IMG/VR virus record: IMGVR_UViG_3300048670_000918
Location: 1 to 43,235 of that record
Direction: 5' to 3' (one strand)
DNA length: 43,235 nucleotides
Origin: a virus
Lineage: Duplodnaviria; Caudoviricetes
Made by a program: the position numbers and the translations under genes
In this document: in pieces, positions 22,324 to 39,679 of the stretch
Layout of the letters: every line of letters starts with the position of its first letter
Numbering within the stretch: position 1 is the first letter of the stretch
Notes under the pieces: generated by a model
The model's database searches: none
Seen by the model: only the letters and a program-made list of their open reading frames with translations
What the model was told of the DNA's origin: nothing

Positions 22324-22391
22324 GGGCGCTGCTGGGAATCGAACCCAGGATTCCAAGCTATGAGCTTGGCGTGTGCCAACACTTCAGGACC
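22324..22391 (-). tRNA. Atypical tRNA with CAT anticodon (Met or Ile2), possibly degenerate
   Basis: Anticodon arm CCAAG-CTCATAG-CTTGG; T arm CTGGG-TTCGATT-CCCAG; D arm GTGT-TGGC-ACAC; acceptor GGTCCTG/CAGCGCC has a C-C mismatch; no encoded CCA. Confidence 0.7.
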
Positions 22392-22451
22392 AGTAACCTC
22401 CTTGTTTGAGCATTGCTAAGAGGCTTAGGAGGTATTGTTGTCAATATAGCA

Positions 22452-29546: not shown

Positions 29547-29708
29547 ATGAGAATCGCTTATATGATAAGGAATGCTGATCCACCGGACGGGATTGATCAC
29601 CATTGCTTATATGATAAGGAATGCTAATGGTTTCGGCTGGAATGATCAGAATCGCTTATATGATAAGGAATGCTGATCTAACTGCCAGGAATCATAAGGA
29701 ATGCTAAT
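29547..29708. promoter_or_regulatory. Seven LysR-type T-N11-A boxes (ATNAG-N5-CTNAT), 49-bp period
   Basis: Sites start at 29547, 29565, 29596, 29614, 29645, 29663 and 29694. Confidence 0.65.
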
Positions 29709-29766
29709 GTTACGAATTGTTACGAAATGTGAAGAAATGTTACAAAATGTTAAGAAATGTAACAAT
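29709..29766 (+). promoter_or_regulatory. Six HLR1-like (RpaB/OmpR-type) half-sites at exact 10-bp period
   Basis: GTTACGAA, GTTACGAA, GTGAAGAA, GTTACAAA, GTTAAGAA, GTAACAAT, each separated by 2 bp. Confidence 0.65.
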
Positions 29767-34285: not shown

Positions 34286-34582
34286 TTAACAGTAAACAGT
34301 GGTGCCGTTTGCTTTGATGCTTACCACGCGCTCGCAGTCAAAGGAGCGCCAGGCGCCTTGACCTTCCTTGCGAGCAATGGAGAAATCACGGCAACGGACG
34401 ATGGAGGGATTCTTGCTGGGAGTGCCAGTGCCTTTCACCTCCTTGGTATCCCTAGGGTTGAATTGCAGGGAGCGGATGGTGCCATCAAGCTTTCGGAACT
34501 CCACAGAGACGATGCTGCTGCCAGCGTTGAAGATGAAGCGCTTGATGAAGGAAGTCTTGTCGGAAGTGATGAGGGTGCTCAT
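34286..34582 (-). CDS. Small SH3/WYL-like beta-barrel protein
   Basis: SVEFRKLDGTIR...WRSFD pattern. Confidence 0.65.
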   Translation of the reverse strand: MSTLITSDKTSFIKRFIFNAGSSIVSVEFRKLDGTIRSLQFNPRDTKEVKGTGTPSKNPSIVRCRDFSIARKEGQGAWRSFDCERVVSIKANGTTVYC

Positions 34583-35383: not shown

Positions 35384-35743
35384 TCATACCTTGGCAAAGC
35401 ACACCTTGGCAACTCCCTGTCCAGGACTGGCGATGCGAGAGAAGGCGCCGTAACTGAGGTCAAGCGACCTGCCTGCAATAAACGGCCCACGGTCAGTGAC
35501 AGTGACGGTCACGCTCCTGTTGTTGGCGGGATTCGTCACTCGCAGGCGTGTGCCGAAAGGGAGCGTCTTATGGGCGGTTGTAAGGCCATGAGCATCAAAG
35601 CGACTGCCGTCTGCAGCGCGTAAACCGTGGAAGCCGTCTCCAAGCCCATAGAAGCTTGCGTGAGCGCATGAAGAAGCAGCCTCCACAGCAGTAGGCGCGA
35701 AGCCAAAAGCAAGGGAGGAAAGAAGAAGAATAGTTTTGAGCAC
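35384..35743 (-). CDS. rlpA: RlpA-like lytic transglycosylase (double-psi beta barrel) with signal peptide
   Basis: ASFYG, TAAH-like TTAHKTLPFGT, V.VTDRGPF...R.LDLS..AF motifs. Confidence 0.9.
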   Translation of the reverse strand: MLKTILLLSSLAFGFAPTAVEAASSCAHASFYGLGDGFHGLRAADGSRFDAHGLTTAHKTLPFGTRLRVTNPANNRSVTVTVTDRGPFIAGRSLDLSYGAFSRIASPGQGVAKVCFAKV

Positions 35744-35851
35744 TTGTTTGGAGAAATAGTTCGCAAGGGCTGGGAGTCTCCTGCCAGCAATGTGCAGCTT
35801 ATCACAATTCCTCTTGCCATTGCTCCCCCCTTTTCATGCTATGCTTTCCAA

Positions 35852-36053
35852 GCAAGTCGGTCCTGGAGCTTCGGCTCTGCTCTCGTAAGGGAGTCCGTGA
35901 GGGTGGACGGTGCTGAATGGATGGACTCTTCCGTAAGGATTAGTCGGGCGCTCATGGTTTGCCTGTAAGGCATCCATTCCCTTTGAGCGAAGCTCAGGAG
36001 CCGCATCATCGGAGGCTTGTAAAGAGAGGAGGGCCGTAAGGCCCTTTTCTTTT
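35852..36053 (+). ncRNA. Highly structured ~200-nt ncRNA with own promoter and terminator
   Basis: Extended -10 TGCTATGCT (35837-35845); UUCG and several GUAA/GUGA tetraloop hairpins; closing stems; terminator AGGGCC-GTAA-GGCCCT-TTTCTTTT. Confidence 0.7.
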
Positions 36054-36143
36054 GTCATGGTATAGTGACAATGGTATGGAAGGCAAGTTCTCTTCAAGCT
36101 TGTGAAGCAATCAGCTTCTCGGCAGCCAGGATTCTCGTCACAG

Positions 36144-36171
36144 AAAAGGGGCCTCACGGCCCCTCTTTTTT
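36144..36171. terminator. Bidirectional intrinsic terminator
   Basis: AAAAGGGGCC-TCAC-GGCCCCTCTTTTTT. Confidence 0.75.
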
Positions 36172-36212
36172 AATAATCAACGGCTTGTCGATACAGAATG
36201 TAAATGCGCCAT

Positions 36213-36443
36213 TCATAGAGTTCTTTCCATTCCTCCATTGTCAGGGGCTTTTGTTTGCGCCCATGTGGTGTCGTAAGGGATGGGTTCAGTGGCGTATTCG
36301 TAGGAGTCATAATCTGGGTCGTTGCGTGGGTCATAAGCCAATGCACTTTGAATTTCAGCTAGTACGGTCCAATAGTCTTTGCCGTTAGTCCATCGGTCCA
36401 TTAACTTGGCGCATAGTGCGCGAAAATCAGGCTCTTTTGTCAT
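36213..36443 (-). CDS. Hypothetical protein
   Basis: MTKEPDFRALCAKL...; N-terminus resembles that of the adjacent ORF (MTDFHSLCIRL). Confidence 0.6.
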   Translation of the reverse strand: MTKEPDFRALCAKLMDRWTNGKDYWTVLAEIQSALAYDPRNDPDYDSYEYATEPIPYDTTWAQTKAPDNGGMERTL

Positions 36444-36453
36444 GGTAGGAAAG

Positions 36454-36636
36454 TTAATACGGAGCAATGCGTGCATCTTGCGTGGCAAGTTCCTGCTTTT
36501 CTGTTTCGTTCATGAAGCCACCATATTCTTTATGTAAAGCAAGACGAATTTGGCTGATAATGTAATTTTGAGCTTTTGCATTGTCAGCGTCGGTGGCAAT
36601 GATGAGACGAATGCAAAGGCTATGAAAGTCAGTCAT
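36454..36636 (-). CDS. Hypothetical protein
   Basis: 60 aa ORF in operon position. Confidence 0.6.
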   Translation of the reverse strand: MTDFHSLCIRLIIATDADNAKAQNYIISQIRLALHKEYGGFMNETEKQELATQDARIAPY

Positions 36637-38022: not shown

Positions 38023-38949
38023 TCAATCGCTTGTAACAAACGGCCAGTGATGAACGCACTGCTCTAGTTCGTTAATGGTTTGCACTTCTAGGAAATCGGT
38101 GCGCCAATTTTCTTGGGTGCCATCAATAATCTTCCCCTGCTCCTTAAGCCATCTTTTAATTGCGTTCTCCCTATCTAAAGCTTCTTGCCCAGAGACGGGT
38201 CCTATTACTTGCAGTACTGTCCATCCTCTCTGCTGATGCTTCTTGAGCCTCCTTTCAGGATCATTAGTGATACCAATTTTCTGCTCGCTGCTTTTGTACA
38301 GCAAATATAGAAAGCCAGGCTTTGTAACTTTGTAGCCACTGGCGGCGCATTTCGGACAGCCATTACCCTGATGAGTGCGATTGTTCACATAGGCACTCCA
38401 GCGATGGTCACAGGCGGGGCACTTCCAATCTCTTTTTACAGATGCTTTACATGAAACTGTTGCGGGGTCCCAGCCGTCAGCGTCTTTTGCAATATCAGGA
38501 AATCTAGTGAGCAAATCATTGATTCCTGGCGAAAGGATGTTACCAGCACAAGTGGGACATCCAGTATTTTCGCAAGTACGATGGCCGGGGCACGTAACCC
38601 ATCGGTGACCATGCTGACATATCCATGGAAGATTTCGGTTGGAGGCTTTGGTAACTGTTGCAGGGTCCCATCCATCTGCCTCGGCAGCAATCAAAGGGAA
38701 GCATGACAGCAAGTCATTGATGCCAGGTTTTACTCTGTTCCGACCACACTTCGGGCAGTTGCTTTTCTTGCTAGTTCTGCCGCAAACCTGAGTGGACCAA
38801 ATGTGACCTTCAGCACACTGCCACCTATGCACCTCTGAGCTGCCATAAGAGATGGTGGAAGGATCAGCATCTAGCAGTTGGGCTGCAACTTCAGGGAATT
38901 TCGTTAAAAGGTCATTCTGTCCCGCTATCACCTTGCGCATCGTCATCAT
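38023..38949 (-). CDS. Zinc-ribbon repeat (DUF4379-like) protein with C-terminal GIY-YIG-like domain; putative homing endonuclease
   Basis: Three NDLL..FP..A...W.C..(G)H.W...RT....CP.C repeats, then GFLYLL...KIGITN..ERRL..H...GW. Confidence 0.8.
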   Translation of the reverse strand: MMTMRKVIAGQNDLLTKFPEVAAQLLDADPSTISYGSSEVHRWQCAEGHIWSTQVCGRTSKKSNCPKCGRNRVKPGINDLLSCFPLIAAEADGWDPATVTKASNRNLPWICQHGHRWVTCPGHRTCENTGCPTCAGNILSPGINDLLTRFPDIAKDADGWDPATVSCKASVKRDWKCPACDHRWSAYVNNRTHQGNGCPKCAASGYKVTKPGFLYLLYKSSEQKIGITNDPERRLKKHQQRGWTVLQVIGPVSGQEALDRENAIKRWLKEQGKIIDGTQENWRTDFLEVQTINELEQCVHHWPFVTSD

Positions 38950-39679
38950 CCTCAGTTATGCATAATATAGCGCGACTACTCCCCGAAGGGTTGCCATCTT
39001 CGTCAAATTCAGGCTCTACTGGCTCCGATTCTGTGTCTATGGCCGCAAGGCGATCTCCAGCGTTCTTTTCGGCGTCTTTTACCTTGGTGATTTGCGAAGC
39101 CAAGTTATCCAAAAAGTGCTTATAAGTGTCTTTCTCTTCTTTTACCTTTTGTTTTTCAAAATCATAGAGGCCAAGTAACTTTGCTTGTTGCTCAATACAT
39201 CCTTTTGCAACAGTAAGAAAGCTGCTTTCCCCTGCGCTCTCCGTGATACTAATAGTTTCTCCTCTGTCAGAAATAGTCGTAATTGTTTTCTTCTTACTTG
39301 TTTCAAAGTTTTTCATAGCCTCTTCTTTTAGCGCCATCGACTCTTGAAGAAGCCTAGCTTTTTGACAATCATGACTTTTAATAATACTTTCCGTCCACAA
39401 ATTCCTATTTTGATGTCTATCTCCATTTACGGTTTCCTTACTCAACTTCATGACACGAGATATTTGCGAATTACTAAGATTGGCAGCAAGAAGCTCTTGC
39501 ACCATAAACCTACGCAAGCCAGTGGTTTCTTTGTTATATGGAATCTTGCCAGGTCCATTGCCCACTTTCTCTCGCATCTTATCAATTTGCTCTGGCGTGA
39601 GGCCAGCTTCAACTAACACTTTCAGCCCGTAACGAAGCTCAGCCTTTTCGTCAGGGAAGTTGATTTGCGGGGAAGGCAT
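38912..39679 (-). CDS. Putative terminase small subunit (HTH)
   Basis: N-terminal HTH (LSNSQISRVMKLSKETVNGD), GESSFL...IEQQAKLLGLY and acidic tail. Confidence 0.55.
   Translation of the reverse strand: MPSPQINFPDEKAELRYGLKVLVEAGLTPEQIDKMREKVGNGPGKIPYNKETTGLRRFMVQELLAANLSNSQISRVMKLSKETVNGDRHQNRNLWTESIIKSHDCQKARLLQESMALKEEAMKNFETSKKKTITTISDRGETISITESAGESSFLTVAKGCIEQQAKLLGLYDFEKQKVKEEKDTYKHFLDNLASQITKVKDAEKNAGDRLAAIDTESEPVEPEFDEDGNPSGSSRAILCITEDDDDAQGDSGTE

Follow-up and report, generated by a model that had tools for sequence, protein, structure and literature searches.

The window, i.e., the whole stretch of DNA analysed here, is a complete virus record of 43,235 bases and represents a genome that is approximately 60% complete. 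By its major capsid protein, the closest relative is Synechococcus phage S-CBS4 (82.6% identity; next capsid matches at or below 35%), and the ribonucleotide reductase shares 69.9% identity with that of the same phage. Judged by these protein similarities, the window is a fragment of an S-CBS4-like cyanosiphovirus, which points to a picocyanobacterium as the probable host. The RNA element described below sits between an rlpA-like DPBB_1 gene and a converging run of minus-strand genes, and the flanking genes in the window all lie on the minus strand, as previously noted. The features of the region are the following:

35384..35743, minus strand: RlpA-like (DPBB_1) lytic transglycosylase gene (Pfam PF03330, E 6e-23), the divergent neighbour that adjoins the RNA in 59/59 loci reaching rlpA
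35769..35804, minus strand: extended -10-like box of the divergent rlpA-like gene (35796-35804), together with the hairpin in its leader, read from the sequence
35837..35845, plus strand: extended -10 promoter-like box (TG-n-TATGCT), TGCTATGCT, with a probable transcription start at about 35851-35853
35852..36020, plus strand: predicted RNA core, with P1 (35852-35858 with 36014-36020) as closing helix and the predicted 5' end paired within it
35859..35908, plus strand: invariant J1/2 G and P2 (35860-35863 with 35905-35908; 3/4 pairs compensatory), enclosing the optional hairpins and P2c
35865..35893, plus strand: P2a and P2b, optional hairpin insertions with a UUCG and a GUAA loop, respectively, missing in the six-member L004/L007 group
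35895..35902, plus strand: P2c, a CC-GYRA-GG hairpin with six positions invariant in 79/79 homologs
35909..36007, plus strand: P3 (35909-35913 with 36003-36007)
35915..35979, plus strand: P4 (9 bp, 35915-35923 with 35971-35979)
Inside P4, plus strand: P5 (35924-35945), P6 (35946-35964, loop mostly CAUGG) and J6/4 (35965-35970, mostly GNRAGG)
35980..35998, plus strand: P7, an arm of variable length, placed by anchor parse and covariation
36008..36013, plus strand: J3/1, AUCGGA, a junction strand invariant in 79/79 homologs
36030..36053, plus strand: intrinsic terminator-like hairpin (36030-36045) and U tract, likely bidirectional (minus-strand match)
36058..36171, plus strand: second small RNA unit, accessory, comprising a separate -10 box, two hairpins and a terminator

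The leader hairpin of the rlpA-like gene (35769-35788, minus) has a GAGA/GCGA-type loop; similar hairpins can be read by eye in 15 printed homolog leaders, and it may correspond to DNAVirus_786, tabulated in PMC10690425 as 74 nt long and upstream of DPBB_1. Contigs L008-L023 carry a different conserved, structured-looking leader approximately 60-130 nt upstream of their rlpA-like genes, with no Rfam match at that place in L008. A short acidic ORF lies beside the RNA in either orientation across genomes (36213-36488, minus, in the window; also L343, L344, L347 and L480:8246-8455). Elsewhere in the window, an abiF RNA motif directly abuts tRNA-Met (22324-22432, minus), and abiF likewise stands immediately ahead of a tRNA in L008. 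The gene-poor stretch at 29706-29766 holds dense, overlapping direct and inverted GTTACA-type repeats, which could be an origin, a terminus or an array of regulator-binding sites. The gene at 38912-39679 (minus) bears the label 'RNase E' in PHROGs and in S-CBS4, a label with no Pfam backing; its product looks like an HTH protein, possibly a small terminase (a weak lead), and it lies far from the large terminase gene. A 121-aa gene has an Atlas match to DDE transposases with few features in common, and this is a lead only.

Homologs of the RNA were collected by several routes. Loci fetched via the rlpA-like protein contained 8 homologs among 80 loci, and pattern scans of viral and metagenome contigs gave 27 distinct sequences, on which the model R1 was built. 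This model identified an unannotated copy in S-CBS4 (NC_016766.1 64534-64731, minus; 61.6 bits), which occupies the gap ahead of the rlpA-like gp093 in the same divergent layout as in the window; blastn with the window RNA missed this copy, returning short chance matches only from isolate phages and none from plasmids. A looser pattern scan gave 59 model matches in 74 loci. Candidates from the pattern scans were discarded when they did not pass the profile or model (4/16, 3/21 and 15/74), as was L195 (24.6 bits), which reads as coding DNA without stems; the truncated copies L542/L607 and four 11.6-bit matches were left out of the final set. The latter comprises 79 distinct sequences, all from viral or metagenome contigs, with a mean identity of 51%, a minimum of 29% and an effective number of 41.5; the matches span 144-227 nt. 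The metagenome scan covered 14/64 parts. In the 37/64 parts of the GTDB genomes that were scanned, 120 pattern matches were obtained, none of which passed the profile, and no homolog came from a cellular genome.

The distribution was also assessed in a pattern-free manner, with 80 loci fetched by a clade-specific 172-aa protein, 61 of which hold the RNA. All of the loci that reach the rlpA-like gene (59/59) carry it, divergent and 81-203 nt upstream of rlpA. Among the 19 loci without the RNA, 18 break off no more than 3.1 kb from the anchor, and the remaining one (L628) is without rlpA too and has its RNA elsewhere on its contig (L504). The spacer on the non-rlpA side of the RNA varies from 1 to 4 kb. 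Given its presence in every rlpA-reaching locus together with this variable spacer, the RNA behaves as a core gene. The AUCGGA motif was part of every scan pattern, and the protein-anchored homologs carry it as well.

The predicted fold consists of seven helices arranged around three three-way junctions, P1/P2/P3, P3/P4/P7 and P4/P5/P6. The linkers of the P1/P2/P3 junction are G, none and AUCGGA, and the closing linker of the P4/P5/P6 junction is mostly GNRAGG. P2a and P2b are optional or variable, the P7 arm is variable too, and both predicted ends of the RNA lie within stems. The single window sequence folds better than its shuffles on both strands (z of -3.15 for plus and -3.47 for minus), and therefore folding energy does not choose the strand. 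For the first 27 sequences, aligned with plain MAFFT, RNAalifold recovers P1-P4, the tip of P5 and P7, with 24/33 pairs compensatory. Across the 79 homologs, in an alignment fitted to the model, 96.6% of 3187 cells pair and 37/41 pairs change on both sides; this combination of pairing and compensation is matched by 0/500 shuffles, and slid controls pair at 35-47%. Compensatory double changes occupy 834 cells, many G-U pairs included. In the 52 held-out homologs, which did not enter training, pairing is found in 303/303 cells of P1, 100% of P2, 253/258 cells (98%) of P3, 465/467 cells of P4, 95% of P6 and 98% of P7. Furthermore, a model-free anchor parse finds the 9-bp P4 in 78/79 sequences, and model pairs occupy all of the top 18 MI-APC ranks. 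The helices vary freely in sequence but keep their pairing and length.

This comparison also corrects the structure proposed in the first-pass annotation. One of its two outer stems, GCAAGTC/GGCTTGT, corresponds to the fully paired P1, whereas the other falls away: its UCCUG/CAGGA part pairs in 250/340 cells (74%) of the 79 homologs, compared with 95-100% for the model helices in the 52 held-out sequences, and its CGG/CCG part in 135/232 cells (58%). In the model, GUCC pairs with GGAC to form P2, not with CAGGA. The suggested UGCC/GGCA stem likewise gives way, with 188/262 cells (72%) paired across the 79 homologs.

Among the top MI pairs, no non-nested covarying helix is found, and no pseudoknot survived testing. 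A pairing of the P6 loop with J7/3 looks good in some subgroups, but 918/3000 shuffles equal it (3/49 rows mis-parsed). The P2c CCG/CGG positions can pair with J3/1 in 237/237 cells, but these are invariant and hence uninformative. In one subgroup (L483, L546, L517, L585, L586, L591, L596, L599, L609, L612 and L622), the P6 loop, the P7 base and J7/3 are remodelled together, hinting at contact between these parts.

The gene signals are conserved together with the structure. Upon re-reading of the sequence, the motifs reported earlier were located at their positions: the -10 box at 35837-35845, the P1 strands, the hairpins (UUCG at 35865-35878, GUAA at 35880-35893 and UCC-GUAA-GGA at 35930-35939), the terminator and the second -10 box at 36058-36066. 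A TAnnnT box lies 12-16 nt ahead of the J1/2 G in 71/79 homologs, 68 of them with TG; two of the eight misses read by eye as TG-n-TAGTAT (L005) and TG-n-TACTAT (S-CBS4). The probable start at about 35852 coincides with P1. On the 3' side of the core, a hairpin of -8 kcal/mol or better with a U run is present in 76/79 homologs. The predicted transcript thus extends over about 35852-36053 of the plus strand (approximately 200 nt), in agreement with the self-contained plus-strand gene initially suggested. The plus strand is assigned because of the G-U pairs, the GNRA loops and the promoter and terminator conserved in homologs. No HLR1-like repeats were found at the promoter of the RNA.

Conservation could alternatively stem from the 107-aa minus-strand ORF, or from DNA-level signals, rather than from an RNA. 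In 13/27 homologs the reading frame is intact and in register, which would fit such a reading; in contrast, a stop or frameshift interrupts it across the RNA body in the other 14/27, so that the conserved protein named beforehand as grounds for refutation did not materialize. The ORF has no PHROG or Pfam match. Together with the compensatory double changes and their many G-U pairs, the broken frames largely refute this explanation, which is left with a vanishingly small probability. On the basis of the covarying structure, its own promoter-like and terminator-like sites and the lack of a conserved ORF, the element is a free-standing ncRNA gene at the level of sequence, and it is almost certainly a real ncRNA.

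Behind this gene, the second unit comprises a -10 box (36061-36066), hairpins at 36083-36103 and 36104-36118, and a terminator hairpin (36147-36164) with the terminator extending to 36171. It occurs in 23 of the 139 loci searched (an overlapping set), which correspond to 15 distinct sequences, and 6/11 pairs are compensatory in 13 aligned sequences. In L001, it is displaced by an insertion. A scan of 35600-36400 at E up to 10 gave no meaningful Rfam match for it. The -10 box, covarying hairpins and terminator of the 15 distinct copies bear out the expectation of another small unit after the first RNA; from its sequence and distribution, this unit is a separate, patchy, accessory small RNA that does not belong to the core RNA. 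Its -10 box is straddled by an inverted repeat (TTGTCA, 8 nt, TGACAA; 36051-36072), a possible repressor site of which altered versions persist in L557, L559 and L005.

Fifteen positions are invariant in 79/79 homologs, and all of them lie around the P1/P2/P3 junction and the CC-GYRA-GG hairpin (G35859, G35860-C35908, CC-G-A-GG and AUCGGA). Such clustering in one junction is as expected of a putative tertiary core, not of a pairing seed. Loop position 35899 has the P1 pair 35855-36017 as its strongest covariation partner: counted by row, a GYGA loop is accompanied by A-U in P1 in 45/47 cases and a GYAA loop by G-C in 23/32. A loop-receptor correlation of this form (GYGA-AR/YU, GYAA-RG/CY) is reported in PMC3494683, and the GYRA/helix receptor geometry in PMC7913685. 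The P2c loop and P1 obey the same sequence rule as this module of group I/II introns and RNase P, which occurs in many RNAs and assigns no family to the phage RNA. The P2c loop likely docks on P1 pairs 35855-36017 and 35856-36016. In a tree built without these columns, the receptor changes approximately six times, never against the rule; the tree-corrected sign test is not significant, with too few independent events (median p 0.25-0.5) and none in the opposite direction.

Eight sequencing runs contain part of the stretch, and six are recorded as RNA. They were selected because they contain this stretch and are available as assembled contigs only, which give no strand, transcript ends or expression level; in addition, reads from several strains can collapse onto a conserved core, and some of the signal may come from contaminating DNA. 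X5 and X7 are left out of the expression evidence, as both may be DNA runs. The X2 assembly includes a contig that covers just 35863-36012 at a depth of 2272, compared with 101-304 for the neighbouring contigs, and in X3 a contig over 35900-36299 has a depth of 120 versus 11-26. X6 contributes a single contig in 2 kb, at 35868-36011; in X8, depth sums to 87-107 over both RNA units and to at most 50 elsewhere; X4 contains one contig that is flat across 35723-36549. The X1 and X2 contigs begin at the same place behind adapter, with the insert starting at about 35865. These metatranscriptome contigs hint that the core RNA is expressed.

With respect to catalogued RNAs, an Rfam scan of the window at gathering thresholds returned abiF and a tRNA elsewhere and nothing at the RNA, and in 14 homolog loci scanned at E up to 0.5 no family reaches threshold. 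No known self-cleaving ribozyme or riboswitch of Rfam matched in the window region or in these 14 loci. ryfA (RF00126) was rejected as a chance match: it scored 30.2 bits in 1/14 homolog loci against a gathering threshold of 80 bits, and the alignment covers just a 5' piece and the terminator. The first-pass annotation had considered kinship with manA (RF01745) or wcaG (RF01761), which PMC2864571 describes as 5' UTR motifs of T4-like phages and marine metagenomes. The likeness is limited to their being structured RNAs found in cyanophages (PMC2864571), since neither model matches in the window at E 10 or better or in the 14 homolog loci. Unlike these motifs, the phage RNA is free-standing and belongs to a siphovirus clade; in contrast to manA in particular, it does not lie in a same-strand 5' UTR, having a terminator in 76/79 homologs and a divergent gene as its constant neighbour.

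Larger ornate RNAs offer another comparison. According to PMC12286853, phages and prophages encode GOLLD and ROOL, and both, like OLE, are multi-junction RNAs of unknown function. The phage RNA is likewise multi-junction, but with approximately 170-230 nt it is much shorter than a ROOL example of 659 nt or the many GOLLD RNAs above 800 nt (PMC12286853); it has no Rfam match and no supported pseudoknot or kissing covariation, and lies 13 kb from the tRNA of the window. The viral candidate RNAs of Fremin 2023 derive from IMG/VR intergenic regions (PMC10690425) and were compared through their tables; a fragment of the phage RNA may be among them. The candidates are at most 151 nt long, and DNAVirus_786 and DNAVirus_8392, which lie within 25 bp of DPBB_1 genes, are of an rlpA-leader type unlike the phage RNA. 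No description of the phage RNA was found in the literature, as judged by titles and abstract openings. By its predicted structure, it is a new RNA class without a catalogued relative.

Concerning its function, the favoured reading is that the phage RNA is a shape-based protein ligand, a decoy or scaffold acting in trans, to which we assign a probability of roughly 0.45. The host polymerase would transcribe the RNA early in infection, as the host-type promoter-like box suggests. The RNA would then act in trans through its shape, binding a protein, more likely one of the host, for which it would serve as decoy or scaffold. Free helix drift at fixed geometry, the junction invariants, the paired ends and the lack of a seed argue for action by shape; the core distribution suggests that every infection requires what the RNA does. 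Taken together, shape, core distribution and presumed early synthesis favour a protein-binding decoy or scaffold. The best phage partner candidate is a stand-alone WYL/Sm-like (WYL_2) protein (34286-34582, minus), 1.2 kb from the RNA, which is present in 49/61 loci and is the most conserved neighbour (median identity 74%). Against the PDB, its model gave weak WYL-domain matches (best E 0.06), with good matches among viral models. A WYL_2/Sm-like protein also occurs in unrelated cyanophages and Acinetobacter phages. As an obligatory partner it was rejected, having no match in S-CBS4, which has the RNA, and being present in S-CRES2 and B23, which are without it. Since it does not track the RNA, the odds shift to a host protein or another core protein.

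A compact invariant core would suit a ribozyme or an aptamer equally well, and complex orphan RNAs of similar type have proved to be ribozymes, sensors or nanocages. A ribozyme of an undescribed class, self-cleaving or trans-acting, with the P1/P2/P3 junction as its active site, is unlikely on balance. The fifteen invariant bases in one junction with a likely docking loop would fit it, as would the shared start of the X1 and X2 contigs; this start, however, sits at the border of an optional insertion and may reflect a reverse-transcription stop or a library artefact. Moreover, none of the ribozyme families in Rfam matches, and for a free-standing RNA that already has ends of its own, cleavage would yield no clear product. 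Similarly improbable is a metabolite- or ion-binding aptamer, working as a trans-acting sponge or, in some genomes, as an attenuator for the following gene. Its junction-centred invariants are riboswitch-like, and a same-strand ORF lies 3' of the terminator in S-CBS4, L343, L344 and L347; on the other hand, the terminator (76/79) is separate from the core, the ORF behind it runs on the opposite strand in the window as in several relatives, and the linked rlpA gene is upstream and divergent. The first-pass term 'antisense' holds for orientation, but no recurring complementary target appeared in the phages' own flanks. A base-pairing small RNA directed at host or phage mRNA would fit the exposed, conserved P6 loop (CAUGG), but the RNA has no long conserved single strand, and exact matches in its own flanks are at most 14 nt, none recurring at one gene (63 loci, flanks only), leaving this explanation with a low probability.

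Two further explanations invoke assemblies of the RNA. The phi29 packaging RNA is a core gene of similar length with its own host-type promoter and a three-way junction. A virion or packaging RNA working in the same way would be compatible with the similar size, the promoter-like site, the three-way junctions and the core-gene distribution of the phage RNA; it is nevertheless quite improbable, given a conventional large terminase (PHROG 2), the likely small-terminase-like HTH gene at 38912-39679 (a weak lead) and the lack of covarying loop-loop pairing, with P6-loop pairing at shuffle level. The chances are also small for an RNA-only dimer or ring like OLE, ROOL and GOLLD, formed via the P6 loop or an intermolecular GYRA/P1 contact. 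A Watson-Crick palindrome of at least 4 is found in 30/36 distinct P6 loops, compared with 11 in shuffles, a count that ignores descent, and these palindromes resemble the mark of intermolecular kissing loops that PMC12286853 describes for OLE and GOLLD; nanocages are formed by ornate RNAs in the same source. Against this, the CAAG, CACG and AUUG variants break the palindrome, the phage RNA is far smaller than those RNAs, and no compensatory switch is seen: in the L483 group, CUAG lines up with a 5' CUAG present in L520 next to CAUG, so that the L483 group has lost CAUG.

Dense covariation, a likely tertiary contact and a core-gene distribution are seldom found together in phage RNAs. The cultured pair S-CBS4 / Synechococcus sp. 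CB0101 carries a copy, so that expression, essentiality and partners are directly testable. It is conceivable, and put forward tentatively, that this is an essential core RNA of one cyanophage lineage with a mechanism undescribed in phages, either a new ribozyme class or a tertiary-folded decoy. If true, the decoy version would disarm a host defence or take over a host enzyme.
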